From a virus (lineage: Duplodnaviria > Heunggongvirae > Uroviricota > Caudoviricetes), in the IMG/VR virus record IMGVR_UViG_3300045988_157791: 64,000 bases of DNA. The stretch is one strand, 5' to 3'. The notes beneath the pieces are model-generated. The model saw only the letters and a list, made by a program, of their open reading frames with translations, was not told the origin of the DNA and did not search any database. Shown here one piece after another: positions 5,792 to 58,186 of this stretch; positions within the stretch are counted from its first letter, which is position 1; the number at the start of each line of letters is the position of its first letter. The position numbers and the translations under genes are program-made.

Positions 5792-7132
5792 TTAGGTAAC
5801 GTCTAAGATTCGCTCAATGAAGCGCATTTGTTCGAGGTTTTGTTTAACGCGAATGCTGATCCCTCCCTGCTGGTTACGTGAACCAGCAAAGTAGAGACGA
5901 GCCTCTCCTTTCGCTTCTTCTTCTTCTGTTTTGTTGATCGTTATTACCAGGTCAGCAATACGTACTTTTTCGATGTTGTCGGCAGCGTGCATCATTGTGG
6001 CAACTTCTGACGCGCCACCTTCACGGTTTGTTTGCGATGCTGTGATACCAGCAACGTTGTGTTTGTCATAAAGAGCACGTAAGTCGGTATAGATACTACG
6101 TATGTTGGCGCGATCATCACGAAGGTCATAACTGGCACGCATCAAATCTGCATAGTCGACAACAACCATGTCAGGCACCATGCCATTGGCTTTCATGCTG
6201 TTAAGCATACGATCCAGATCTGCCGGTGACATACTTCCTGACGGACGCTCAACAACCCACAAACTACCAATCCCCTTCGTGGCTCCCAACTCTGCCAACT
6301 TACGATGAACTTCATCGCGCCGTTCCACCAACTTGGACATTTCCGTCTCCGACAATCTTGCATCAAAGCGGTCGGACAAAATGTTGGTGTGAACCTCCAG
6401 CGAGAGATACAGAACATTGTAGCCAGCAAGCGTTGCGTTTATGGAAAACTCACCCATTGCGGTCGATTTACCGGATTTAGCGAACCCCATGAAGAGCACC
6501 ATTTCACGCTTCGCCCAGCCTTTTTGGTACAGCAACCTATCGAGCAGAGGGAGTCCAGTTGTAATGCTGTTTGGCACATACTCCTCTGAAGCCTCATATT
6601 CACGCGCTTTCAATCGCTCACTTGCGGAGGTGTAGTAGTCATAGATTCCGGTCGCTTCGTTCGAGCCTATCTGCTGAACCTTGGCCATGATTGCCATCGC
6701 CCCCTGAAAGTCGCCCTTCTCTTTCAGTTCAGCAGCTTTAATCAGAGCATCATCAAACGCTACACTTTTTGCGAATGTGGATACCTGGTCAACCATGTAC
6801 GAGGTATCAGACAATTTTTCTGCAAGGATGCGCTTAAACGCAGCAACAACATCGGCGAATAGTTCCTCACGGATAGTCTTATCGCGTTTCGCACGCTTAA
6901 GCATATCCAGAATTGCAGATGAAGAGGGCGCGCTCTTGTACATACGGTAATAGCCCGAAACCATATTAACCAATATGGCATTGGCCGCATTGGCAAATTG
7001 GCTAGGCACAACCAGATCTCCCGCACGAGTAAGAAACTCGTGATCACGACAAAAATATGCCGTCAGTCTGTTCTGGAAATCTTCATCAAACTCTTCGGAC
7101 AGCCCGCGTCCTGTATGGCAAAGTTCGGTCAT
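5792..7132 (-). CDS. DnaB-like replicative helicase
   Basis: Walker A GFAKSGKST and DnaB-type Walker B VVVDYADLM. Confidence 0.75.
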   Translation of the reverse strand: MTELCHTGRGLSEEFDEDFQNRLTAYFCRDHEFLTRAGDLVVPSQFANAANAILVNMVSGYYRMYKSAPSSSAILDMLKRAKRDKTIREELFADVVAAFKRILAEKLSDTSYMVDQVSTFAKSVAFDDALIKAAELKEKGDFQGAMAIMAKVQQIGSNEATGIYDYYTSASERLKAREYEASEEYVPNSITTGLPLLDRLLYQKGWAKREMVLFMGFAKSGKSTAMGEFSINATLAGYNVLYLSLEVHTNILSDRFDARLSETEMSKLVERRDEVHRKLAELGATKGIGSLWVVERPSGSMSPADLDRMLNSMKANGMVPDMVVVDYADLMRASYDLRDDRANIRSIYTDLRALYDKHNVAGITASQTNREGGASEVATMMHAADNIEKVRIADLVITINKTEEEEAKGEARLYFAGSRNQQGGISIRVKQNLEQMRFIERILDVT

Positions 7133-8198: not shown

Positions 8199-8966
8199 AT
8201 GGACGATTTATCGGTATACGCGAGATCATTGGATAAGGCTAAATACTATGTTTACTGTCTCTATGATACAGAAGACAAGATGAAAAGACCGTTTTACATA
8301 GGAAAAGGCAAATCGACTCGTTGTCTCGATCACATCAAGTATCCCGATGACTCTCCCAAATCCATGCGGATCAAAGAACTTTTGGCTAATAAAAAATTAG
8401 GCATAGATATACTTCGTCATGGTATGGATGAAACCACAGCCAAACTTGTTGAGGCGACATGCATCGACCTTATGGGGGTCGGAGAGCTTACGAATAAGGT
8501 ACGAGGAAGTGGTTCCATGATGGGCAGAATATCACTGGACGCCTACCATCACTTAGTGCTGCAAGAGGAAACTGAAATTGCTCCTGAGCACGCCGGTCTT
8601 GCCTTCCTGCTAAACAGCACCTACAAGTCAGGAATGTCCGCTCTGGCATTATATGAAGCTACGCGTGGCGTATGGGCAAAGGTTCCAAGAGACGAGAATC
8701 TCAAATATGCCTACGCTACATATGGTGGGCTGATAATGGAAGTTTATCAGATTGAATGCTGGGTCAAAGCCGGTTCTCAGCAGTACTTTACAAGGGATAT
8801 AGCTCTTGGCCCCGACACAAAACGTTATGAATTTGTTGGCAGAATAGCCGATGAGCATATTAGAAAACTGTATGTAGGCAAATTAATCAAGAAGCCACCA
8901 AGCTACGGTAGCCCTTTTGTGAAGGTTGGGGTGGTTAGGACTGAACATAGTGTTAGCGCGGCATAA
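8199..8966 (+). CDS. GIY-YIG nuclease domain protein, free-standing homing-endonuclease-like
   Basis: N-terminal YYVYCLYD...RPFYIGKGKSTR...H matches the GIY-YIG signature; only plus-strand gene in a minus-strand block. Confidence 0.65.
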   Translation: MDDLSVYARSLDKAKYYVYCLYDTEDKMKRPFYIGKGKSTRCLDHIKYPDDSPKSMRIKELLANKKLGIDILRHGMDETTAKLVEATCIDLMGVGELTNKVRGSGSMMGRISLDAYHHLVLQEETEIAPEHAGLAFLLNSTYKSGMSALALYEATRGVWAKVPRDENLKYAYATYGGLIMEVYQIECWVKAGSQQYFTRDIALGPDTKRYEFVGRIADEHIRKLYVGKLIKKPPSYGSPFVKVGVVRTEHSVSAA

Positions 8967-37341: not shown

Positions 37342-38598
37342 CTATCGAGAACCACCAAGAATAACACGGTTTTTGACTGGATACCTACGATGTACTGGAT
37401 AGCCCAATGCGTCTGCACTATGCTCAATGCCACCTGTCTTATCCATATCTCGTGTTCCAGGCTTGTAGATGACTTTTTCCAGTGAATCAATCAAATGCTT
37501 GCACTTCGGATCGATATACAGCCGGATATCTCCAGATGCGGACATCAGCATTCGGTTAACAGCATTAACACGATCCGCAATTGGCGGGTGCTTTTTCGAA
37601 TAATCGACACGTAAGAATCCCTTCTCTTTGAATATGTCTACGTCAGACTCCCCACGAGCATGTTGGCGATAAGCACCTGCCGGATCTGGAAATACCGTTA
37701 CCTGTGATTTCCAGCGCCAGAAGCGTCTCTCAAGCTCATCACAAACTTCTGCCGTGTTAGAGGAAAAGAGCACCAATTCATCAATTGCCCATAGCTCACC
37801 ATTTGGCTGAGGTTGCAAAATTACTGAAGACATCGGGTCAATGTTGAAGTCCTGCCCTACCCATATAGGCAACCGAGGGTTGAACTGAAGCGGTTTTACA
37901 TGCACGTTACGATCGAACGGGTAGTAAACGCGCCCGGACATGTTCTCAAAGCTGGCCAGGTACTCCTGAGCGAACGATTTGGGGTCCATATCGTTCTTAG
38001 CAGCTTCAATTTCCGCCGTAGGTACAAACGGAGAATCGGCAGTTACAAACTGCCAGCTCTTCCACTGTCCCTTTCTTTGCAGCTCTACGTTCTGGCCTAT
38101 AGTCCACAGTTTGTGAAATTCCGAGAAGCCTTTTGGCGTACCAATGATCAGTGCACCGCCGCGTGTCGATGAAAGAGTAGGTCGTAACACCTTGTACCAG
38201 GTGTCAGCCTTCATATCCTGAAATTCATCAAGCACTACAAAATGCAACGCTACGCCGCGCAGAGTGTCAGGCTTATCAGCACCTTTGAGGGCGATCTCCG
38301 AACCGTTCTTCAACACGATTGTCATCGTGGTGTCGTTCTTTTTCCTAACCCACTTACGAGGCAGAACTTCCTGTAGATCGTCCCACAAAATCTGGCGAGC
38401 CATCTGGTAAGTAGGAGCGACATACCAGACCCTTTGCTTTTTTTCCTTTGCCGCCGCACGAATAATAGTGGAGATCGACAACCGGGATTTTCCCCAGCGT
38501 CGACCAGCACAAACAACTTTAAATCGATGCGGAGACTGGAAGACTTTCATCTGTCCAGAATGCAGTTGCACAAGACTGAGCGAGGACGGGATTGCCAT
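37342..38598 (-). CDS. terminase large subunit
   Basis: Walker A VVCAGRRWGKS near the N-terminus, size 418 aa, 4-nt overlap with the upstream small subunit gene. Confidence 0.8.
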   Translation of the reverse strand: MAIPSSLSLVQLHSGQMKVFQSPHRFKVVCAGRRWGKSRLSISTIIRAAAKEKKQRVWYVAPTYQMARQILWDDLQEVLPRKWVRKKNDTTMTIVLKNGSEIALKGADKPDTLRGVALHFVVLDEFQDMKADTWYKVLRPTLSSTRGGALIIGTPKGFSEFHKLWTIGQNVELQRKGQWKSWQFVTADSPFVPTAEIEAAKNDMDPKSFAQEYLASFENMSGRVYYPFDRNVHVKPLQFNPRLPIWVGQDFNIDPMSSVILQPQPNGELWAIDELVLFSSNTAEVCDELERRFWRWKSQVTVFPDPAGAYRQHARGESDVDIFKEKGFLRVDYSKKHPPIADRVNAVNRMLMSASGDIRLYIDPKCKHLIDSLEKVIYKPGTRDMDKTGGIEHSADALGYPVHRRYPVKNRVILGGSR

Positions 38599-39230
38599 TA
38601 TTCGTCCTCCCCTTCACTTCCAACATCTGTCGCATCAAATTCGCTTAGAGCTTCTTCTTCCAACGTCTCAAGCAATTCGTCATCGATGATTTCAGGCTCG
38701 TCGTCTTCCTGACGTAATTTCGCCACCTGGGAAGGCGTAAGCTCACCAAATACCAGGTTCGGAATTTCTTCCTCGTCATTTTCCGCATGATCCATGCCCA
38801 ATGCTTTGGACGAAACTTCAAAGCATTTTGCAAGGGTATTACTGGCTCTCTGTAAGCTCTTGAGAGAATCCTCAATCGCCCCTAAAGGCTTACCCTCACG
38901 TTTGGCCGTAGTGACTTCGACCATCACCATCTGCCCCAACGCATACGCCCAGCCGTCATAACGTGTACGACGTTCTTCTATCTTTTCCGCACGGGCTTTA
39001 GCGCGAAGCTCTGCGTCAGATTTAAGAGACTCACGAACCATCTTCCCAACAGAGTCCGCGCCTTTCTCTAATCCTCGCTTTTTGAAATGTCTGGAGAGTG
39101 TTTCACGACGAATGCCGTACTCTTCCTCCAGCTTTGAGAGTGTATATTCGCCTGACGTCCATTTGGCTTCAGCTTCGGCCCACTCCGCTGGTGTCAGGCG
39201 AGTTTTTACCTCGTCTTTTTCGACCGTCAT
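38598..39230 (-). CDS. terminase small subunit (HTH-containing)
   Basis: N-terminal helix-turn-helix-like LSKLEEEYGIRRETLSRHF, very acidic C-terminus, coupled to TerL. Confidence 0.55.
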   Translation of the reverse strand: MTVEKDEVKTRLTPAEWAEAEAKWTSGEYTLSKLEEEYGIRRETLSRHFKKRGLEKGADSVGKMVRESLKSDAELRAKARAEKIEERRTRYDGWAYALGQMVMVEVTTAKREGKPLGAIEDSLKSLQRASNTLAKCFEVSSKALGMDHAENDEEEIPNLVFGELTPSQVAKLRQEDDEPEIIDDELLETLEEEALSEFDATDVGSEGEDE

Positions 39231-39425: not shown

Positions 39426-39692
39426 TTACATCACCAGTAACTTCGCTTTGGCTCGACCTAAAGTGGTTAACCCAAGAGTCCGGCGGTGATAGCGATTGTC
39501 ACTGCGTTGGCGCGTATGCCCTTTCTCCACCAGCCCCTTTTTTATCAGAGCGCGAATTGAGAACTGGATACTTTGCTTGGTTGTCTTGTACGGCAAAACT
39601 TCAAGCAATTCGTCCAGGTCAAGTAGATGACCTCGCTCATAACCGAGATTGAGCGTTTTGATGATGTCCTTTTGTTTATCGGTTAACGTCAT
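39426..39692 (-). CDS. small winged-helix-like DNA-binding protein (88 aa)
   Basis: Last gene of the five-gene operon; basic C-terminus. Fold assignment tentative. Confidence 0.4.
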   Translation of the reverse strand: MTLTDKQKDIIKTLNLGYERGHLLDLDELLEVLPYKTTKQSIQFSIRALIKKGLVEKGHTRQRSDNRYHRRTLGLTTLGRAKAKLLVM

Positions 39693-39701
39693 GGCAAATC
39701 C

Positions 39702-40592
39702 TTATGCCGGTAAAGCAATTTCTAACGGTTTATCCAAAGGTTGTTTGTCGAATGCCAGCAGTGGCAGCGTGTCAGGCAGTCGACGGCCAAAGTCAGGGTT
39801 TCGGTACACACCATACAACGGAGACGTAAAGCTCAGGTTGTGAATGTCCTTGAGCAGCTTCACAATGCTGGCCTCGTCCACCAGACTGTCGGCAATGTCC
39901 TGAATCGTCGTGCCACGATTCCGCCCAGCTTTTGCCAGGGAACTGTTCTTGTGGTAGTCCGCCACCAGATCACGCAGTGCACGGCGACGACGAGACTCGC
40001 TCATAGCGAACAACTCTTTGACGATCGCCTCGTTATCACCCGGGTCGGAGCGGAAATGGCGCTGGAACACACGCAGTGCACTTTCATAGCTCTTCGGTCG
40101 CTCAGGGCGGATGAACTTAAACCCTGCTTTCATGGCGAAGGGATTGTATTTGCTCATCGATGACTGGATCTCAATGATTGGCCGGTCATGCATCCTGCTA
40201 ACCAGGTTAATCATTCGATAAGAGACGCCTACGCCACGATACTGAGTATCCACAACTGAGCGACTGATCACCGCAAAGTTGTTATTCACGTACCGACCCC
40301 AGTACTGGTTAGCCACGGTGGTATTAGTGGTTGGTTTCAACTTAGGAAACATGCGGTGGCGAGGTGCCAGCAGTAGTTTCGGATAAGCCATAACCACGAC
40401 GCCCACCAGACGGTCATCAAGTTCGCAGCGATAGTAAGTTGGCGCGAAAGGTTTGCCGTCTGTTTTGTAGTGAAGCGACTTAAGAGCGTGCCAGTCCTCT
40501 ACAGTTCCCTTTGTGACTGTCATTCGTTCCAGAAAGTCCAGATGACGCGGAAACTCTTCAGGGCGGTAGCGTTTAATGATGATGTCCGTCAT
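39702..40592 (-). CDS. GNAT-like acetyltransferase-fold protein (296 aa)
   Basis: Putative acetyl-CoA binding motif TQYRGVGVSYRMINL; 4-nt overlap with the upstream ATPase gene. Confidence 0.4.
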   Translation of the reverse strand: MTDIIIKRYRPEEFPRHLDFLERMTVTKGTVEDWHALKSLHYKTDGKPFAPTYYRCELDDRLVGVVVMAYPKLLLAPRHRMFPKLKPTTNTTVANQYWGRYVNNNFAVISRSVVDTQYRGVGVSYRMINLVSRMHDRPIIEIQSSMSKYNPFAMKAGFKFIRPERPKSYESALRVFQRHFRSDPGDNEAIVKELFAMSESRRRRALRDLVADYHKNSSLAKAGRNRGTTIQDIADSLVDEASIVKLLKDIHNLSFTSPLYGVYRNPDFGRRLPDTLPLLAFDKQPLDKPLEIALPA

Positions 40593-41254
40593 GAATGGAC
40601 CTCATCATGACTACCATTGTGATATTCCACCTTCACGCGTTCTTTGTAGTGCTTGGTGATCTGCATATCCGGGCGCAGCGCGTTCTTCAGGTCTTCGTGA
40701 GTCGTCGCCACCATTACCGTCGCACCAACCTTTCGAGCGGCACGCTGGAGGTTAGATGCCACAACCTGAGCGGTTACACGGTCTAAAACAGCACCGAACT
40801 CGTCAGCAGCCCACACTTTAGCGCCTGACTCAATCAGTTTGGCAATCTTGAGACGATATTTCTGACCGTCTGACATTTCAGAAGGCTTGCGAACAAACAG
40901 ATATGCATCGTTCAGACCAGCCATAGATAACAATCCAAGCGCATCACTGGTCGTTTTGCCCAACTGATCGATGACGTTAACCTCATTATCGAAGGTAAAA
41001 TCATCGATGGAGGCTACAGACAGCCCTTCATCCTTCATCTGTCGTTGCAACTCGCGCAGCACAACGGATTTGCCGGAACCGGATTGGCCGGTGATGTACA
41101 CCACATCGCCCTGCTTCACTTCCAGCTCCAGATTGTCGTAAAGCGTCCACTCTTTTTCGTCCAGACCAAGCCCGAACGACTCAGCGATTTCCAACGTGCG
41201 CGTGGTTTTATTTACGCGTGTCTGAAACGATACGTTGATGATGTATTTGCTCAT
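40589..41254 (-). CDS. minimal ABC-type ATPase (221 aa)
   Basis: Walker A GQSGSGKS, ABC signature-like SDGQKYR, Walker B WAADEFGAVLD, H-loop TTHEDL. Confidence 0.65.
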   Translation of the reverse strand: MSKYIINVSFQTRVNKTTRTLEIAESFGLGLDEKEWTLYDNLELEVKQGDVVYITGQSGSGKSVVLRELQRQMKDEGLSVASIDDFTFDNEVNVIDQLGKTTSDALGLLSMAGLNDAYLFVRKPSEMSDGQKYRLKIAKLIESGAKVWAADEFGAVLDRVTAQVVASNLQRAARKVGATVMVATTHEDLKNALRPDMQITKHYKERVKVEYHNGSHDEVHS

Positions 41255-41952
41255 GCAGCCATCTCCCCGGAAGAGATCTTCTCCGCATATGCCACAAATG
41301 CGTCTACCCCGCTTTCTCCCGTCATTTCTTCCATGTGGGCAAGCAAATCACCAACAACAATGGCAGAGCCAGCAGGAAGCGTTTTAAAGCCCAATACGTC
41401 GACAACACGTACTTCTTCCGCTGCAACTTCACGACTGATCTCGGTGTGTTCATCCTTCTGTCGTTTAGTTTCTTCGCCAAGATCGATAACTAGCGAGTCG
41501 GTGTCCATTTCTTCTGTCATACTGCCAACGAGAACATTCAACTCACGCTCTTCAAAGCCGAAAACCTCGATATCGTCCAGAACAAGCGACTCAAGCTCTT
41601 TCTGTAGCTTAATTGCATCGTAATCAATGCTGGCAAGTCGGTTATCTTCAAGGCGCTTCGCACGAACCTCGTCATCACTGAGATCATCGCGAACAATAAC
41701 CGGTACGCGCTCAAGTCCAGCAAAAATTGCAGCCTCACGGCGGCCATGACCAGTAATAATTACGTCGTTCTTATCGACCGTAATTGGCTGGTCAAATCCG
41801 CGCTTTTTAATGGCTGCGGCCAGATCTCTGATCTGCTGTTCATCATGCTTTTTGGCATTCATCTCATAGGGAATAAGATCTGCCGGGTCGCGATATACGA
41901 TTTCAAACTTTTTGGTCATTACATACGCTCCTTGTAGTAGTCGACCAGCCAC
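41251..41952 (-). CDS. ParB/Srx-like N-terminal domain protein (233 aa)
   Basis: ParB-box-like ITGHGRREAA; acidic C-terminal half. Confidence 0.6.
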   Translation of the reverse strand: MAGRLLQGAYVMTKKFEIVYRDPADLIPYEMNAKKHDEQQIRDLAAAIKKRGFDQPITVDKNDVIITGHGRREAAIFAGLERVPVIVRDDLSDDEVRAKRLEDNRLASIDYDAIKLQKELESLVLDDIEVFGFEERELNVLVGSMTEEMDTDSLVIDLGEETKRQKDEHTEISREVAAEEVRVVDVLGFKTLPAGSAIVVGDLLAHMEEMTGESGVDAFVAYAEKISSGEMAA

Positions 41953-42617
41953 ACCAGAGCCTCACCAGCGTTCTCCATTTCATTACCGGTGTTAATAGCC
42001 TGCTCTTTGATGATGTTTTTTATGGTTTCTGCAACACGATCTGACGCATCGAAAGTTACTTTGAAGCGCATGGTCTGATGTTCCGCACCCACACGTTCGG
42101 TTTTCTCTCGTTTGTCGGTATCGACAGGCTCATCACTACCACGAGACAACGCCTCCAGTGCTTCAAGGTCGATTGCCGCCTCTTTTGCTAAAACCATCGA
42201 GATTTCGTCGTCATACGGGGCGATTTCAGACAGTTGATAGTCAAGTTCTGACTGAATTTCTTCAATGAAGCGTTGCAATGCGATTTGGTCGTCTTCACCG
42301 TATCGCTCGTTGTCCACCAGTGACATCTGTTTAGCTACGACATCGCTAATTTTGCCCACAGAAAGCACCGGAACCGTTGAAATTCCTTGCTCAATAGCGG
42401 CACGCCAGCGATGTTCGCCGCCGAGGATTTCAAAAAATCCATCTTCAAGTTCACGAGCCAAAATTGGCTTAAAAAAGCCCAATTTTTCGATAGAACCTTT
42501 CAGTTTTTCAAAATTCTGCGCACCAACCGAATTGGTGTTCCAGGTATTCGGGCGAAGGTTGGCAACATCAACCTGCAAAATCGTGATTTTTACATCCATT
42601 TTATTGCTACAATCCAC
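41919..42617 (-). CDS. ParB/Srx-like N-terminal domain protein (232 aa), paralogue of the downstream gene
   Basis: ParB-box-like LGGEHRWRAA; first gene of the operon, divergent from the SF2 helicase. Confidence 0.6.
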   Translation of the reverse strand: MDCSNKMDVKITILQVDVANLRPNTWNTNSVGAQNFEKLKGSIEKLGFFKPILARELEDGFFEILGGEHRWRAAIEQGISTVPVLSVGKISDVVAKQMSLVDNERYGEDDQIALQRFIEEIQSELDYQLSEIAPYDDEISMVLAKEAAIDLEALEALSRGSDEPVDTDKREKTERVGAEHQTMRFKVTFDASDRVAETIKNIIKEQAINTGNEMENAGEALVWLVDYYKERM

Positions 42618-42681
42618 TAAGTAATCACTTACTTATTATAATAGCCAAATAACATACAAAAGGCACTAAGGAAAGAGGTTT

Positions 42682-44241
42682 ATGACTGTTCGGATTGTAT
42701 CTAACGCAGTAAATGCGCTTATTTCTGGCGCAGATGACAAGGTAAAGCAACTGGTGCAGCAAATGTTGAGCTACGAAGTCGAGACTGGCGACTGGAAGGG
42801 CACAAGCACGATGTTCAACTGGAGTAAAAACTCGTTCCCTGCTGGCTTTGCCAAGCCTGTAGCGGCGAACTTGAACAAGGCGGGCATCAAATGTGTTCAT
42901 ATCCGCAAAGACAAAGCCCCGGCGCTTGGAAAGCCAAATCCGGCGGTTAACCCATTCCCATACAATCCTGATTATGCGTATCAGGATCAGACTGTGGAAA
43001 CACTAGTTCGCGAGGGAATGATGATTGCGCAGATCGCTACTGGTGGCGGGAAATCTAATGTTGCCTGCAAAGCAGCTGCACGTATCGGTCGAATGACATT
43101 ATTTTTAACAACCCGCTCTGTTCTGATGTTTCAAATGGCCGAAAACTTCCAGAGATCCATCGACTACCGCGCCAAAAATGGCGAACCGTGGTTAAAAGAC
43201 CAAAAGGTTGGAGTCATTGGCTCGGGTGAGTTCCAGGTATCACGACATATCAACGTCGCTACAGTTCAAACTCTGGCAAGTTTCCTTGAAGAACCACCAC
43301 GCGATGCAACACCAGATAAGAAGAGCTACCACCTCAAACGTCGGGACTTGGTGAAACGCTTCCTTTCAAGTGTGTCTCTGCTTATTCTGGAAGAGGCGCA
43401 TGAGTCTTCAGGCTCTAATTTCTATGACATCGCCAGATTATGTGTGAACGCAGACTATCGTCTGGCGCTTACAGCCACGCCGTTCATGAAGGATTCTACA
43501 GAAGCCAACATGCGTCTGATGGCTGTGGCCGGGCGAATTGAAATTAAAGTCACAGAAAAGTACCTGATTGATCGAGGCATTCTGGCAAAACCGTACTTCC
43601 TTTATCATAAAGTTGCTTACAAGCCAGACGAGGTCAGAATCAAGGCGGAACTTGCCAACAAACACCTTAATTTTAGAGTAGGTATGAGCACTGCCTACCA
43701 AAAGGCTTATCAGTTGGGGATCGTGTATAATTTGGGACGTAACGAGGCCATTGTGCGCGAAGCATTGCTCTATAAGCAACATTCTCTCAATTGTATGACT
43801 CTGGTTCGTCTTAAACGCCACGGGCAAATCCTGATGGAGATGATGAAGGAGTCCGGCCTTAGAGTTGACTTCATTTATGGGGAATCGAACCAGGCGACAA
43901 GGCAAGCAAAGCTGAACAGTTTAGCGTCTGGCGAAATAGATGTTTTAATAGGCTCGACTATTCTGGATGTCGGTGTTGATGTGCCAAGCGTGGGCGCGGT
44001 CATTCTTGCTGGTGGTGGGAAAGCAGAAGTTGAAATGAGACAGCGTGTCGGTCGTGGCTTACGAGCAAAAAAAAATCAGGCAAACGTGTGTTTTATCACT
44101 GATTTCATTGACATTAGCAACAAATACCTGTTGTCTCACTCTTATGAGCGAAAACACATCATCGACACCACACCTGGCTTTGCAGAAGGTGTATTGCCTA
44201 TTGATGGCGCATTCGATTTTGGAGTTCTGAAACGAGATTAG
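42682..44241 (+). CDS. superfamily 2 DEAD/DEAH-box-type helicase
   Basis: Motif I ATGGGKS, motif II LEEAHE, motif III TATP, motif VI QRVGRGLR. Confidence 0.75.
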   Translation: MTVRIVSNAVNALISGADDKVKQLVQQMLSYEVETGDWKGTSTMFNWSKNSFPAGFAKPVAANLNKAGIKCVHIRKDKAPALGKPNPAVNPFPYNPDYAYQDQTVETLVREGMMIAQIATGGGKSNVACKAAARIGRMTLFLTTRSVLMFQMAENFQRSIDYRAKNGEPWLKDQKVGVIGSGEFQVSRHINVATVQTLASFLEEPPRDATPDKKSYHLKRRDLVKRFLSSVSLLILEEAHESSGSNFYDIARLCVNADYRLALTATPFMKDSTEANMRLMAVAGRIEIKVTEKYLIDRGILAKPYFLYHKVAYKPDEVRIKAELANKHLNFRVGMSTAYQKAYQLGIVYNLGRNEAIVREALLYKQHSLNCMTLVRLKRHGQILMEMMKESGLRVDFIYGESNQATRQAKLNSLASGEIDVLIGSTILDVGVDVPSVGAVILAGGGKAEVEMRQRVGRGLRAKKNQANVCFITDFIDISNKYLLSHSYERKHIIDTTPGFAEGVLPIDGAFDFGVLKRD

Positions 44242-44243
44242 TT

Positions 44244-44522
44244 ATGAGCGAAAAGAAAACAACTTATTGCCAAGTGGCATTGTCTGATAAGGCCAATGAA
44301 AAACTTGGAAAATTTCAAATAAAACTCAAAGAGAAAAAAATCAAGATGTCTAAGGCTGAAGTTATCAATGCCATTCTGGAGACGATGACTATGGCTGAAT
44401 TTGACAAAGTCACATCTGCCGTTGGGGTTTCCGCTAAGACGCGTGAGAAAATCATGCGCATCTATGAGAACTCCAATATGACAAAAAAAGATCTAGAGGA
44501 AATACTGAGCAGGTTGCCGTAA
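44244..44522 (+). CDS. small ribbon-helix-helix-like protein (92 aa)
   Basis: Starts 2 nt after the helicase stop; KMSKAEVINAILE resembles an RHH strand-helix. Confidence 0.4.
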   Translation: MSEKKTTYCQVALSDKANEKLGKFQIKLKEKKIKMSKAEVINAILETMTMAEFDKVTSAVGVSAKTREKIMRIYENSNMTKKDLEEILSRLP

Positions 44523-44554
44523 CATTTCATATTTACCCCCTATCTACTAATTCT

Positions 44555-45154
44555 ATGATGTGCTCACTTGTTAGAAAGGAGCACATCATGAGTTGGTTAA
44601 AAGAATTATCATTTGTTGACACCACTGGCGCTAAGAAAAATCATTCTTTCTGGAAAGTCAGCGATCCTTCCGATTTTCTTGTTGGTGCTAATGCTGCTTT
44701 TGAATTGCTTAACTTTTATCAACGTTATCCTGAAATGAAACACAGTCCACTCCTGTACAGAATAACAAACGATATGAATAGGTCTGGTTTATTATCAAGT
44801 GAGTCAGCGAAAGGCTTTTTTAGCAAAATTACGCCACACATATCATTCGATTCAGCAAACGAAATTGATTATCTACCCACGAAACCTCAAGAACAATTAT
44901 CTGTACCACCTGAGAAAAAAGAAAGACGAATTGCCAGCATTGAAAATATATCGAAAGAGCTTCGCACAACAACGTTGAGGCTGCTGAACTTTCTTACGCT
45001 ACTTAATTGGATAGATGATCAAACATTGATTCCATCAACCGATGCGTTGGATAACAGAGTCCTTAGGCTGAACAAAAAATCGCAATTTGGTTTTGTGTTC
45101 ACCAAAAAAGGTGAAGATTTAATCAAAAGAAAATATAGATTATTGAATGATTAA
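44555..45154 (+). CDS. hypothetical protein (likely 188 aa from ATG at 44588)
   Basis: AAAGGAG ribosome-binding site and ATG at 44588 lie inside an 11-bp inverted repeat (ATGATGTGCTC ... GAGCACATCAT) that could sequester the site. Confidence 0.5.
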   Translation: MMCSLVRKEHIMSWLKELSFVDTTGAKKNHSFWKVSDPSDFLVGANAAFELLNFYQRYPEMKHSPLLYRITNDMNRSGLLSSESAKGFFSKITPHISFDSANEIDYLPTKPQEQLSVPPEKKERRIASIENISKELRTTTLRLLNFLTLLNWIDDQTLIPSTDALDNRVLRLNKKSQFGFVFTKKGEDLIKRKYRLLND

Positions 45155-45539
45155 TAGTCTACATGCAGGTGTATGAGAGCACCTGCATGTGACACTCATC
45201 ACATTTTTGAATGTATATACCTTCGGCTGAAAAAAGATCTTGATAGGCTGAATGATATTTGTAGGCTTCGCCTCCGAAGAAATTCGGAGGATATATGCGA
45301 CAATTTATAAAAACGTGTGACCTAAGAAATATAGTAGATGATATTGCATGTGATGAAATTAGCAAAAAAGAGAAGAACAAAAACGCCAATTAACGCTATC
45401 TACCTATAAATCTGAAGAGTTCAATAGGATGCATATCTGAAACACGCCCTCGACGATACCAAAAAGATTTGTCGAGGGCGTCGGGCTTTCCCTATGTCTG
45501 AACGATTAAATTTTACAGCAATTAAATATTTTGTATATG

Positions 45540-46340
45540 TTATTCTTCTGGTGGTACGACAAAATCGTCGAGTTTATTCTTTTCGTCTCGAAGCAACCTG
45601 ATTTCTTCTTCTGTTATGCATTTGTCATAATCTGTTTGTTCAGAATGGCACAGCGCAACTGCGAATGGATAGCCGGTGTAAGACAGCCCTCTAACAGGTT
45701 CTAATTCACCGTTGTCTTTTTTCCTAAATTTGTAAAAGTCAGGAGTGTCATAATTGGTGACGCTAACAAGAGCATATTTATCATTTTCTCTTGCATACAC
45801 TTCACTAACACCTCTCGATTCGCCCAACTCTCTACTCACATATGTCGAATCACTTGCAGCATCAAACACAGCCTGACCTAATGGAGTTTTTTTTAAATCA
45901 TCTATTTTCTCTTTTTCCTTCCTGATTTTAGATTCGTTTTCCAGATAAAGTTTCACACCATTTTCTTTACATGCTAGATTTTGGCGTTCAAAACGTAATC
46001 GTTCTCTTGCCGAGTTGGTACTTTTATCCATTGTAACGAATACAATCGGGTTACGTTCACGAACATCAAAGATGTGTGCATTGAATGCGGTCGCACCTGT
46101 ATAGGCGTTCAAGACGTTTTTGCCATTCACCTCTCCACATACCATATATGAATAGCTATTTTCACCTAACTGAATAGCTCGCATATTCGTGAACCGACCA
46201 GCATCAGGATCTAGCAGTGTAGAGCGAATATCCTTTTCAACTAGATTTATGGCTCGCTCTTCATCAGAATCACAACCTGTTAATAGTAAAGCCGCTATTA
46301 ACAATGCTAATGAGTATTTTTTATTCACCCCATTCTTCAT
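45540..46340 (-). CDS. lipoprotein (266 aa)
   Basis: Signal peptide with lipobox LLTGC; hairpin terminator CGCCCTCGAC...GTCGAGGGCG downstream. Confidence 0.55.
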   Translation of the reverse strand: MKNGVNKKYSLALLIAALLLTGCDSDEERAINLVEKDIRSTLLDPDAGRFTNMRAIQLGENSYSYMVCGEVNGKNVLNAYTGATAFNAHIFDVRERNPIVFVTMDKSTNSARERLRFERQNLACKENGVKLYLENESKIRKEKEKIDDLKKTPLGQAVFDAASDSTYVSRELGESRGVSEVYARENDKYALVSVTNYDTPDFYKFRKKDNGELEPVRGLSYTGYPFAVALCHSEQTDYDKCITEEEIRLLRDEKNKLDDFVVPPEE

Positions 46341-46442: not shown

Positions 46443-46964
46443 ATGGTTAAAGACATCACCTACGGCATACCGGCTGAAGTCTGGCCGCGAGACTACGAAC
46501 ATGCTGAAAACATACTTATGTTCTGGCGGAAGAACAACATTCCTGTAAGAGTCACGCTTGAAGACGGTCAGGTGTTTTGCATGTACGTTCAGGGGACAAT
46601 GCCTTCCCGCAATAAGCTAGATTTATGCCCGCTTCCATATGATAAAGAAAATCGTATAAGACTCCCACTTGAGCGCATTAGCACAATTGAATCAGGTGTA
46701 ATCGATGGCATTGCTCGCGAGTTCAAAGGTAGGCTAACAATACATCCAGACTATGTTGACAATCAGCCATCACGCCGTGACTTTTTTGCGATATGTCGCA
46801 AGGCTTATCAAAACGACCAATCTATAAGGGTCTACATGGCAGACGGTCGTGAAATAGAAGGGGTGTCAAGAGGCGTTGATGCTTGTCAGGTCACTCTTAA
46901 GTTAGAAGACGGCAGAAAAATACTTGTTTTCTTCGATTGGGTTGAACGAATCCTTCCATTTTAA
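46443..46964 (+). CDS. hypothetical protein (173 aa)
   Basis: ORF followed by a clear intrinsic terminator. Confidence 0.5.
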   Translation: MVKDITYGIPAEVWPRDYEHAENILMFWRKNNIPVRVTLEDGQVFCMYVQGTMPSRNKLDLCPLPYDKENRIRLPLERISTIESGVIDGIAREFKGRLTIHPDYVDNQPSRRDFFAICRKAYQNDQSIRVYMADGREIEGVSRGVDACQVTLKLEDGRKILVFFDWVERILPF

Positions 46965-54894: not shown

Positions 54895-56928
54895 TTACTT
54901 AACCTGGTGGCCAGGTTTAGCACCAGCATCCGGGCTTAACAGGAAGATATCTTTCCCGCCGGGGCCAGCAGCCATCACCATGCCTTCAGAGATACCGAAG
55001 CGCATTTTACGTGGTGCCAGGTTAGCCACCATAATGGTGTGACGACCAATCAGTGCCTGCGGATCCGGGTAGGCAGAACGAATACCGGAGAAGACATTGC
55101 GTTTTTCACCGCCGAGATCCAGTGTCAGGCGCAGCAGTTTGTCAGAACCTTCAACAAACTCTGCGTTTTCGATCAGCGCTACGCGCAGGTCAACTTTGGC
55201 GAAGTCGTCAAAGGTGATGGTTTCCTGAATCGGATCATCTGCCAGTGGGCCAGTAACTGGCGCGGCAGCTGCTTTCACTTCTTCTTTAGACGCTTCCACC
55301 AGTGCTTCAACCTGCTTCATATCGATGCGGTTATACAGTGCCTTGAACGGATTTACTTTATGGCCCAGCAGCGGTTGCTGGATACCATCCCAGGTCAGTT
55401 CTGTATTCAGGAATGCTTCTGCACGTTCAGTCAGTTTCGGCAGTACCGGCTTCAGGTACGTCATCAGCACGCGGAACAGGTTAATGCCCATAGAGCAAAT
55501 CGCCTGCAGATCGGCATCGCGTCCTTCCTGCTTCGCCACCACCCACGGAGCCTGTTCATCGACATAGCGGTTAGCCAGGTCAGCCAGTGCCATGATTTCA
55601 CGGATAGCTTTACCAAATTCGCGGCTTTCCCACGCTTCACCAATCACTTCAGCGGCATCAGTGAAGGTTTTGTACAACTGCGGGTCAGCCAGCTCGCTTG
55701 CCAGCACACCGTCAAAACGCTTATTGATAAAGCCAGCGTTACGGGACGCCAGGTTAACCACTTTGTTCACGATATCGGCATTCACACGCTGAACGAAATC
55801 CTCCAGGTTGAGATCGATATCATCAATGCGCGAAGAGAGTTTCGCAGTGTAGTAGTAACGCAGGCTGTCAGCGTCAAAATGATTCAGCCAGGTGCTGGCT
55901 TTAATAAAGGTGCCGCGAGACTTGGACATCTTCGCGCCGTTCACCGTCACATAGCCATGAACAAACAGGTTGGTCGGCTTGCGGAAGTTGCTGCCTTCCA
56001 GCATGGCAGGCCAGAACAGGCTGTGGAAGTAAACGATATCTTTACCGATGAAGTGGTACAGCTCGGCGGTGGAGTCTTTCTTCCAGTATTCATCGAAGCT
56101 TACGCTGTCGCCGCGCTTGTCGCACAGATTCTTGAAAGAACCCATGTAGCCAATCGGTGCGTCCAGCCAGACGTAGAAATATTTGCCCGGCGCGTTCGGA
56201 ATTTCAAAACCGAAGTAAGGGGCGTCGCGGGAGATATCCCACTGTTGCAGGCCAGATTCAAACCACTCCTGCATTTTATTTGCCACCTGCTCCTGCAACG
56301 CACCGCTGCGGGTCCATGCCTGCAACATTTCGCTGAAAGAGGGCAGATCAAAGAAGAAGTGTTCAGAATCACGCATTACCGGCGTAGCACCAGAAACCAC
56401 CGATTTCGGTTCAATCAGTTCAGTCGGGCTGTAGGTCGCGCCGCAGACTTCACAGTTATCGCCGTATTGATCTGGCGCTTTACATTTCGGGCAGGTGCCT
56501 TTCACAAAACGGTCCGGCAGGAACATGCCTTTTTCCGGATCGTACAGCTGAGAGATGGTGCGGTTTTTAATAAAACCGTTTTCTTTCAGGCGAGAGTAGA
56601 TAAGTTCTGACAACTGGCGGTTCTCTTCGCTGTGCGTCGAGTGATAGTTGTCATAGCTGATGTTAAAGCCTGCGAAATCAGTCTGATGTTCCTGACTCAT
56701 TTCGCCAATCATCTGCTCCGGTGTGATACCAAGCTGCTGAGCTTTAAGCATGATCGGCGTGCCGTGGGCATCGTCGGCGCAGATGAAGTTGACCTCGTGG
56801 CCGCGCATTCGCTGGTAACGGACCCAGACATCAGCCTGGATGTGCTCCAGCATATGGCCGAGGTGGATTGAGCCGTTAGCGTACGGCAGCGCGCACGTCA
56901 CCAGAATTTTCTTCGCGACTTGGGTCAT
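54895..56928 (-). CDS. metG: methionyl-tRNA synthetase
   Basis: 677-aa protein from [31 protein letters not shown] with class I HIGH-type (HLGH) and KMSKS motifs and C-terminal tRNA-binding domain. The track ORF extends upstream to a non-ATG start. Confidence 0.95.
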
Positions 56929-57085
56929 AGTAGGCATTACTTCTTTGTAGTGAAAAGGGGCTTGATAGTAACAAAATGGCCTTATGTCTGCCATGTGATA
57001 ACAGCATTTCTCATAAATGATTAAATGTCGTAGCTGGAGTACACTACAAGGCGACAATTGCGCAAATTAAAATAAAGGAGACGGG

Positions 57086-58186
57086 ATGAGCGAGTCCAAA
57101 TCGCCGGATGCCCTGAGAGCAATGGTAGCCGGTACGCTGGCTAATTTTCAGCACCCAACCCTGAAACACAACCTGACTACGCTTAAAGCGTTACACCATG
57201 TTGCGTTGATGGATGACACACTGCATGTCGAACTAATCATGCCTTTCGTGTGGAATAAGCCTTTTGAAGACCTGAAAGAGCAATGTAGTGGTGATCTGCT
57301 CCGTATCACTGGCGCAAAGGCTATTGACTGGAAGCTGTCGTACAACATTGCCACGCTTAAGCGCGTCAAAAACCAACCAGGCATTAATGGCGTTAAGAAC
57401 ATTATCGCCGTCAGCTCAGGCAAGGGCGGCGTAGGTAAATCCTCCACGGCGGTAAATCTGGCACTGGCGTTGGCTGCTGAAGGTGCGAAAGTTGGTATTT
57501 TGGATGCCGATATCTATGGTCCATCAATTCCAACCATGCTGGGCGCGGAAAACCAACGTCCAACCTCACCGGACGGTACTCACATGGCACCTATCATGTC
57601 TCATGGCCTGGCAACCAACTCTATTGGTTATCTGGTCACCGACGACAATGCAATGGTGTGGCGTGGACCGATGGCCAGCAAGGCGCTGATGCAGATGTTG
57701 CAGGAAACTCTATGGCCTGATCTGGACTATCTCGTTCTCGATATGCCGCCGGGCACTGGTGATATTCAGTTGACGCTGGCGCAGAACATTCCTGTAACTG
57801 GTGCGGTTGTGGTAACTACGCCGCAAGACATCGCGCTGATCGATGCGAAGAAAGGCATTGTGATGTTCGAAAAAGTCGAAGTGCCGGTACTGGGTATCGT
57901 CGAAAACATGAGTGTGCATATTTGCAGTAACTGCGGTCATCACGAGCCAATTTTTGGCACCGGTGGCGCACAGAAACTGGCCGAGAAATACAACACGCAG
58001 TTGTTAGGCCAAATGCCACTTCATATCTCTCTTCGTGAAGATCTGGATAACGGAACACCAACCGTTATTAGTCGTCCAGATAGCGAATTTACGGCTATTT
58101 ATCGTGACCTCGCAGATCGCGTTGCTGCCCAAATGTATTGGCAAGGTGAAGTAATACCTGGCGAAATCGCATTCCGCGCAGTGTGA
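57086..58186 (+). CDS. apbC: Mrp/ApbC Fe-S cluster carrier ATPase
   Basis: Deviant Walker A SSGKGGVGKSST, CSNCGHH Cys motif, divergent from metG with about 157-bp spacer, the usual enterobacterial arrangement. Confidence 0.9.
   Translation: MSESKSPDALRAMVAGTLANFQHPTLKHNLTTLKALHHVALMDDTLHVELIMPFVWNKPFEDLKEQCSGDLLRITGAKAIDWKLSYNIATLKRVKNQPGINGVKNIIAVSSGKGGVGKSSTAVNLALALAAEGAKVGILDADIYGPSIPTMLGAENQRPTSPDGTHMAPIMSHGLATNSIGYLVTDDNAMVWRGPMASKALMQMLQETLWPDLDYLVLDMPPGTGDIQLTLAQNIPVTGAVVVTTPQDIALIDAKKGIVMFEKVEVPVLGIVENMSVHICSNCGHHEPIFGTGGAQKLAEKYNTQLLGQMPLHISLREDLDNGTPTVISRPDSEFTAIYRDLADRVAAQMYWQGEVIPGEIAFRAV

Follow-up and report, generated by a model that had tools for sequence, protein, structure and literature searches.

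A stretch of 64,000 nucleotides (nt) from the IMG/VR virus record IMGVR_UViG_3300045988_157791 (Caudoviricetes), hereafter the window, was analysed with a focus on positions 42682-45154, where a helicase gene and a small gene are followed by a third gene whose start lies within an inverted repeat. Over 42600-45200, the window matches Escherichia phage Cyrano (the pLF82 phage-plasmid) at 98.2% identity and two more E. coli phage-plasmids (PhiR41_1 and a CMS-2020a record) at 97.7-97.8%, and the helicase part of this region shares 79.5% identity with Salmonella phage SSU5. The window also encodes a DnaB-like helicase (5792-7132, - strand), a primase, an ATP-dependent ligase, terminase, portal and tail genes and three tRNAs. 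Based on this gene content and the identity to Cyrano, the source element is an SSU5-type phage-plasmid of E. coli. The features at the locus are as follows (aa, amino acids; SD, Shine-Dalgarno sequence):

42682-44241, + strand: SF2 DNA helicase of 519 aa, assigned by sequence to the UvsW family, with a UvsW_N-like N-terminal domain and two RecA-like motor domains
44244-44522, + strand: gene for a conserved 92-aa partner protein (PHROG 1466, function not assigned), starting 2 nt past the helicase stop codon
44532-44559, + strand: weak sigma-70-like site, a candidate only (TTTACC-16-TATGAT, 9/12 match), overlapping the left arm of the stem-loop
44546-44597, + strand: conserved predicted RNA stem-loop with an 11-bp core, an outer 8-bp stem (44546-44553/44590-44597) and a 1-nt bulge
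44576-44590, + strand: translation initiation region of the cargo gene (SD AAGGAG 44576-44581, 6-nt spacer, AUG 44588-44590)
44588-45154, + strand: 188-aa cargo gene (PHROG 13473) encoding a helical N-domain (1-85), a disordered linker (87-111) and a putative MerR-type winged-helix-like C-domain (112-188)

The 519-aa open reading frame (ORF) matches the Pfam families ResIII (1.1e-14), DEAD (2.7e-14) and Helicase_C (4.9e-13), and the motifs I (ATGGGKS), Ia, II, III (LTATPF), V and VI (QRVGRGLR) are legible in its sequence and invariant across 25 homologues, in agreement with the original prediction of an SF2 helicase with all core motifs. Motif II (residues 237-241) reads EEAH and not DExH, the first acidic residue being Glu instead of the usual Asp, and this Glu is kept in 25/25 aligned homologues. 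A single-sequence search of the PDB returned archaeal XPBII first and also Rad25, RecG and T4 UvsW, and a profile of the 25 homologues placed T4 UvsW (2oca) at the top (3.2e-25) with archaeal XPBII nearly equal (4.1e-24). The hhalign comparison with T4 UvsW is colinear over 422 columns (query residues 15-479, 99.5% probability, E 7.5e-23, ~24% identity) and sets helicase residues 15-93 on UvsW residues 15-93, and the Pfam domain UvsW_N (PF21241) is found in helicase homologues of 48-50% identity (34-35 bits, cut-off 25.3 bits). The XPB/Rad25 family models are not satisfied by the helicase (NCBIfam repair_heli_XPB 49.8 bits with a cut-off of 610; Pfam ERCC3_RAD25_C 22.4 with a cut-off of 27). 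Based on the profile ranking, the colinear alignment including the N-terminal domain and the presence of UvsW_N in homologues, classification with hidden Markov models assigns the 519-aa protein to the UvsW family, a family already annotated in Cyrano, whose depositors labelled the gene "UvsW helicase".

T4 UvsW and T5 D10 are branch-migration/annealing helicases that act in recombination-dependent replication and fork rescue (PMC5180179; PMC7824862). The helicase resembles T4 UvsW (2OCA), T5 D10 and archaeal XPB in its length of ~500 aa, its monomer-size SF2 organization, its UvsW_N-type N-domain and its two RecA-like domains, whereas it differs from T4 UvsW, with which it shares only about a quarter of its residues, in motif II (DECH in UvsW). 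The DnaB-like helicase that had been noted elsewhere on the element is indeed encoded there, and the family assignment supports a second, non-replicative helicase beside this DnaB-type replicative helicase. Outside the span of the window, Cyrano encodes a gp32-like single-stranded DNA-binding protein (SSB; 1.7e-66), an intein-containing RecA, SbcC/SbcD-like proteins and a flap endonuclease (FEN). By sequence, these genes are a T4-like recombination set into which a UvsW-type helicase fits; the gp32-like SSB, RecA/UvsX-like and Mre11/Rad50-like genome partners are common to T4 and Cyrano. In contrast to T4, which has no such arrangement, the helicase described here belongs to a temperate siphovirus-type phage-plasmid and always lies divergent from a ParB-ParB-ABC gene group by the terminase.

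The 92-aa gene follows the helicase at the distance originally reported and, given the 2-nt gap, is probably translationally coupled to it. A small ORF (61-105 aa) is found after the helicase in 7/7 distant relatives, and a HMMER scan of 1.84 billion protein representatives identified 24 relatives of the 92-aa protein, nearly all free-standing and 90-120 aa long. The protein had been described as ribbon-helix-helix (RHH)-like, and its N-terminal sequence pattern does resemble that fold (a short hydrophobic strand, a helix, then a "SKAE(I/V)IN" helix), but the label found no further backing: no RHH family in Pfam was matched at E <= 10 by 12 or by 15 members of the family, and three sequence searches of the PDB with the family gave no match. 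The AlphaFold model is unreliable (pLDDT 48.7) and places helices at 15-30 and 37-47 after an unstructured N-terminus; the C-terminal half of the protein is helical, and one distant family member matches SHOCT at its C-terminus. In T4, the 76-aa helical protein UvsW.1, a potential DNA-binding partner, is encoded right after uvsW (PMC7824862), and a profile comparison with the 92-aa protein was therefore made. It revealed no sequence homology to UvsW.1 as given in the T4 record (hhalign probability 0.15%, E 0.38), and at the level of sequence the 92-aa protein was rejected as its counterpart: the two are alike in position and size class, whereas the 92-aa protein forms a separate small family with an RHH-like N-terminal pattern. 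Judged from the sequences compared, the 92-aa gene always accompanies the helicase gene as its neighbour.

Downstream of the small gene, the two arms of a perfect 11-bp inverted repeat (ATGATGTGCTC, 44555-44565; GAGCACATCAT, 44579-44589) are spaced by 13 nt. The original prediction that the ribosome-binding site and the ATG of the third gene lie within this repeat holds, both being located in or against its right arm, and the repeat is both beyond chance and conserved. The 52-nt hairpin at 44546-44597 has a predicted energy of -28 kcal/mol (z = -7.5; 0/200 shuffles as good), CUU and AAG inside its 13-nt loop also pair in the predicted fold, and a 118-nt fold around it reaches -30.8 kcal/mol (z -3.7). 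In the predicted helix, pairing takes in the complete SD, the AUG and codons 2-4 of the 188-aa gene. The program-called ORF opens at 44555, the start used in the Cyrano annotation; ATG 44588 is likely the true start, because PHROG 13473 aligns over 1-188/188, homologues align from that Met, and the upstream ATG loses the frame where relatives have a loop of 14 nt. No Rfam family matches the stem-loop, its arms and core are present as a single copy within the window, and a scan found no terminator-like site between 44241 and 44546.

The stem is kept in all Klebsiella, Salmonella, Enterobacter and Cronobacter homologues of the 188-aa gene (protein identity 41-45%). In these gene-bearing relatives the core ATGTGCTC/GAGCACAT stays the same, the pair next to it being G-C in the window and C-G in the relatives; where the stem reaches into codons 2-3, its pairs covary through synonymous changes (A-U, G-C, G·U), and the loops of 13-14 nt always end in AAAG followed by GAG. 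Among 14 distinct stem sequences, positions 1-9 are paired in 14/14, double compensatory changes occur at five positions (7, 8, 9, 10 and 15) and G·U pairs at five (1, 2, 12, 14 and 15). Overall, 92% of the stem positions pair in register compared with 20-48% in a shifted register, and the loop length ranges from 11 to 16 nt.

The hairpin is also present where the third gene is absent. Among the retrieved comparison loci (coded by L numbers, with L198 Cyrano, L192 Rhizobium phage B1VFA, L194 a Vreelandella locus and L109 a Methylomicrobium metagenome-assembled genome, MAG), L146, L142/L145 and L157 lack the 188-aa gene, yet their small gene is directly followed by a GTGCTC/GAGCAC hairpin. The L157 hairpin has 15 contiguous pairs and no SD in its loop, and compensatory changes set that of L145 apart from those of L142 and L146. 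Between the close relatives L146 (11846-11876) and L142/L145 the hairpin as a whole shows a flip-flop inversion, which suggests template switching or cruciform-mediated inversion. Relatives without the GTGCTC/GAGCAC hairpin, SSU5 included, carry a canonical GC-rich T-tailed terminator at the same place, and distant relatives with an intergenic gap after the small gene have a strong hairpin there too. Because it is kept where the third gene is absent, the stem-loop is assigned to the end of the helicase operon, and we conclude from these sequence comparisons that it is primarily a terminal structure of that operon in which the cargo initiation region is embedded. It is like an intrinsic terminator in being a stable hairpin at an operon end, and unlike one in being moderately GC-rich, in its 11-16-nt loop and in the absence of a U-tract.

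Similar hairpins were encountered elsewhere. In phage B1VFA (L192 9799-9843), the gene that follows the helicase-small pair has an inverted repeat at its front (CTGCTCGCTATAA/TTATTAGGAGCAG, 77% complementary) whose right arm contains the AGGAG of that gene, 3 nt ahead of the annotated start. A scan of IMG/VR with the pattern ATGTGCTC-N11-16-GAGCACAT matched 76 stretches, of which 26 are 188-aa-gene loci and the others are SSU5-like without the gene or chance-like, apart from one look-alike ahead of an HNH endonuclease gene; the hairpin was accordingly rejected as a repeated operator or mobile motif. A look-alike hairpin on unrelated IMG/VR contigs (L062 5060-5100, L091 and L101) has the same 9-bp arms (GATGTGCTC/GAGCACATC), AAAGGAG in the loop and an ATG right after the stem, followed by a 165-aa HNH/AP2-like homing-endonuclease ORF. 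It probably represents convergence or chance, although its design equals that of T4 homing-endonuclease genes.

The inversion of the hairpin between L146 and L142/L145, as from template switching, and its presence without the 188-aa gene would both be expected if the stem-loop had no regulatory function and were a self-perpetuating quasipalindrome, an mRNA 3' stabiliser or an RNase III site whose overlap with the start codon is incidental. Such an incidental overlap is quite unlikely when the gene-bearing lineages are compared. In every one of them the SD (AAAGGAG) straddles the loop-arm junction, despite a protein identity of ~42%, and the AUG lies in the right arm or directly at its 3' end; moreover, a helix of -19 to -29 kcal/mol over the SD and the AUG must depress initiation regardless of its origin.

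Stem-loops in the initiation region that sequester the SD and/or the AUG in read-through transcripts are known from T4 e, soc, 49 and I-TevI (and from mobE of phage Aeh1), and T4 gets around the lock with a promoter located in the 5' arm (PMC3014915). The locus resembles these T4 genes in that the SD and the AUG lie in a predicted stable helix just downstream of another transcription unit, and it differs from them in that the stem also occurs where relatives lack the downstream gene, the locus resides on a temperate phage-plasmid, and a 5'-arm promoter, the defining release in T4, is not demonstrable or conserved. A switch of the T4 gene e/I-TevI type, with the -10 of a cargo promoter in the left arm, loop-started transcripts translated and read-through transcripts locked, would be a specific opening mechanism within the translational lock favoured below. 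The sigma-70-like site at 44532-44559 would put a start near 44566, the first loop base, in line with the mechanism documented for the T4 genes. This mechanism is regarded as doubtful here: the match is of just 9/12 positions and such matches are frequent in the region scanned (14 found, 6.2 expected), and the scan for sigma-70-like sites calls none at the homologous position of the Klebsiella/Salmonella/Enterobacter clade (L003, L004 and L005), which reads CATCAT with a poor -35. A conserved TTTWCCCC box was likewise considered as a recurrent promoter element and rejected, as it is not enriched in the window (5 found, 3.2 expected).

The 188-aa family is narrow (36 clusters, all from SSU5-like elements of Enterobacteriaceae). 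In the AlphaFold model (pLDDT 79), a disordered linker joins a helical N-domain to a C-domain, and the latter is a probable MerR-type winged helix; Foldseek matches were not significant and no sequence-level match to MerR-type domains was found. Compared with MerR-type winged helices (RacA, pSK1 Par, MerR and KilA-C/antirepressor), the domain is C-terminal in the 188-aa protein and its helical N-domain is without a relative. A DNA-binding role is plausible, and the palindrome might then act as a double-stranded DNA operator for a dimeric binder, either the 188-aa protein as an autorepressor or the 92-aa protein, controlling the cargo promoter. Such an operator would fit a core more invariant than pairing needs, with its invariant half-sites ATGTGCTC/GAGCACAT lying 21-22 bp centre to centre (about two helical turns) and the sigma-70-like site overlapping the left arm. 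An operator is nevertheless unlikely, since the palindrome stays at loci without the 188-aa gene, occurs as one copy in 64 kb, and has a variable arm spacing of 11-16 nt, with G·U (T·G) positions and variable extensions into the coding region that suit RNA pairing and not a fixed operator. The other clade is without the promoter-like site, and if the small protein had an operator, its likely place would be the promoter of the operon and not the 3' end.

Upstream of the helicase lies a divergent operon of five genes (39426-42617), followed by the terminase genes:

41919-42617, - strand: ParB-N protein (Pfam ParB_N), the operon gene nearest the helicase
41251-41952, - strand: ParB-N protein (Pfam ParB_N), in the operon
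40589-41254, - strand: soluble ABC-type ATPase (Pfam ABC_tran 5.8e-13), in the operon
39702-40592, - strand: 296-aa protein with no assigned function, in the operon
39426-39692, - strand: 88-aa winged helix-turn-helix (wHTH)-like protein, in the operon
38598-39230: TerS-like, after the operon
37342-38598: TerL, after the TerS-like gene

The two ParB genes match ParB_N with E-values of 3.3e-13 and 1.5e-08, and the genes of the operon and the terminase match PHROGs 723, 930, 293, 886, 900 and 867. A sequence search of the PDB with the ABC protein gave no specific relative. The 296-aa protein is 42-53% identical across the whole clade and has no match in Pfam, NCBIfam or the PDB; it is labelled as a homologue of "MK0520, ABC-type ATPase fused to acetyltransferase" in the Cyrano record, and the acetyltransferase label was not reproduced with Pfam.

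Neighbours of the helicase were counted in the 80 closest of 403 IMG/VR relatives and in six distant loci, each scored where the flank sufficed. The first ParB gene is present in 81/81 evaluable loci and the second in 77/79, followed by the ABC ATPase (75/78), the 296-aa gene (71/74), the 88-aa gene (67/73), TerS (69/73) and TerL (70/72). The order portal-TerL-TerS-wHTH-296 aa-ABC-ParB-ParB, then helicase-small ORF in divergent orientation, is kept from 100% down to ~40% helicase identity and is the same in seven distant relatives with a helicase identity of 40-50% (a Methylomicrobium MAG, a Vreelandella chromosome, Stenotrophomonas phage ANB28, Rhizobium phage B1VFA and three metagenomic contigs). 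The link to the divergent operon that had been suggested at the outset is thus confirmed by co-occurrence and is real in the sequences compared, and a helicase standing apart from the operon was not found. The block recurs across a broad clade of siphoviruses and phage-plasmids of roughly 100 kb and could, with its UvsW helicase, partner, two ParB-N proteins, ABC ATPase and 296-aa protein by the terminase, be an uncharacterised DNA-processing machine coupled to packaging.

The tight linkage to ParB-N and ABC ATPase genes also bears on the possibility that the helicase is a translocase of defence or counter-defence (PbeA/Dnd-restriction-like or Res-like) acting with the ParB/ABC operon and not a recombination helicase. 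Besides the Pfam ResIII match, it has a PADLOC match to PbeA (5.4e-23) and an NCBIfam match to dnd_restrict_1 (TIGR04095, 3.9e-16), but the latter scores 59 bits with a cut-off of 600 and the former spans the SF2 core alone, as expected of generic SF2 similarity, and no further domain, neither nuclease nor sensor, was found in the protein. PADLOC returned generic matches only for eight proteins of the window, with no membership of a defence system. The colinearity with UvsW that includes the N-domain, together with the position of the block in the core by the terminase and its retention in phages such as ANB28 and B1VFA (defence genes are usually accessory), makes a defence function very unlikely. 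Of the roles that had been proposed for the second helicase, recombination and restart are therefore backed by its UvsW family membership, whereas counter-defence is not.

In contrast to the constant block, the slot between the small gene and a FljA-family gene (44523 to about 46440) differs among relatives:

Window: the 188-aa gene and a lipoprotein gene
L146: empty
L142 and L145: a reverse-strand lipoprotein gene alone
SSU5: a 140-aa lipoprotein gene
L157, L130 and L134: other genes
45161-45190 in the window: second perfect 11-bp hairpin, just past the cargo gene, between the convergent genes 44588-45154 (+ strand) and 45540-46340 (- strand)
46443-46964 in the window, + strand: FljA-family gene (Pfam Flag1_repress, E 5e-81), just past the slot and present in all SSU5-like loci examined

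The slot has a GC content of 34-40% (34-38% in the 188-aa gene) compared with 45-54% in the core genes, and the right arm of the second hairpin is kept in L157, where the 188-aa gene is deleted. These comparisons indicate that the 188-aa gene is replaceable cargo in a hotspot after the helicase operon. In the distant relative integrated in a Vreelandella chromosome (L194 11417-14143), the slot after the helicase-small gene pair holds an MmeI-family restriction-modification gene, and the hotspot may therefore be ancient and hold defence genes. FljA of Salmonella is an mRNA-binding translational repressor of flagellin. By analogy, the phage-plasmid FljA-family gene may silence host flagellin, and its product is a candidate binder of the stem-loop, which could thus be an RNA operator of a local protein (the 92-aa partner or the FljA-family repressor). 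Alternatively, as a hairpin or cruciform of the DNA, the stem-loop could favour the exchange of cargo. Because its core is invariant, because it flips between close relatives, and because every cargo variant is delimited by it on the left, it was further considered as a sequence-specific boundary element at the hotspot; that it has this function, or that the UvsW/ParB/ABC block is a packaging-coupled machine, is improbable.

Taken together, the locus is probably best explained by a UvsW-type helicase operon that ends in a conserved stem-loop locking translation of the cargo gene. The genes 42682-44241 and 44244-44522 would form a two-gene operon and the rightward half of the core block, the leftward half (two ParB-N proteins, ABC ATPase, 296-aa protein and wHTH protein) running on into terminase and portal. 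If it acts as UvsW and T5 D10 do, the helicase would most likely bind branched DNA and use ATP for branch migration, fork regression and D-loop/R-loop processing, acting in recombination-dependent replication and concatemer maturation alongside the DnaB-type helicase and not replacing it. The transcript of the helicase operon would end in the conserved stem-loop, into which the cargo SD, AUG and first codons would be built in this lineage. With the SD and the AUG inside a helix of -19 to -29 kcal/mol, we infer that initiation on read-through transcripts is blocked, so that transcripts from the helicase operon could not start cargo translation; a transcript starting inside the hairpin, cleavage by RNase III or a binding protein are candidates for the opening of the stem.

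Several points weigh against this explanation. The helicase of the window itself stays under the Pfam UvsW_N threshold, and no relation of its partner protein to UvsW.1 was found. The terminator scan does not call the stem-loop, whose tail reads GAGUUGGUUAAAAG without a U-tract, and its role at the operon 3' end follows from position alone. The candidate internal promoter is confined to the clade of the window. Seemingly compensatory changes in DNA quasipalindromes can arise mutationally by template switching, and the 6-8 bp core GTGCTC/GAGCAC is invariant although the flanks, the loop and the downstream gene all vary, an invariance that exceeds pairing needs and hints at sequence-specific recognition.

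Some further genes of these elements were noted. LAGLIDADG inteins are found in the RecA of Cyrano (L198 5065-7404) and in the large terminase of the Methylomicrobium relative (L109 2443-4833). A 255-aa ORF of the window (8199-8966, + strand) contains a LEM-3-like GIY-YIG nuclease domain (5.5e-07) on the strand opposite to the neighbouring DnaB-like helicase and primase genes and may encode a homing endonuclease. The window also carries full-length housekeeping genes, metG (methionyl-tRNA synthetase, 54895-57057, - strand) and apbC/mrp (57086-58186, + strand), labelled MetRS and MinD in the Cyrano record. Both share ~98% identity with copies carried by further E. coli plasmids of ~110 kb and 90-95% with the chromosomal genes; a chromosomal junction suspected at metG/apbC was ruled out, as both genes are carried by the plasmids themselves.

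These findings refine the annotation of the locus and do not overturn current understanding, its features being of a known and fairly ordinary kind. With the hairpin, a known regulatory design gains a new and well-conserved example, whose invariant core pairing alone does not explain, and it offers a concrete, testable case of a cargo gene that would be shielded from the expression of the essential operon in front of it. SSU5-type phage-plasmids, which carry accessory genes, are often met in clinical E. coli, Klebsiella and Salmonella, and the hotspot from 44523 to about 46440 is a place to look for new ones. For the elements themselves, a conserved core block of helicase, partner, ParB-ParB-ABC genes and terminase is now defined, and the "DEAD/DEAH helicase" of SSU5-type elements is placed in the UvsW family beside a T4-like recombination set, which suggests that lytic replication of these temperate elements may proceed via recombination-dependent replication.

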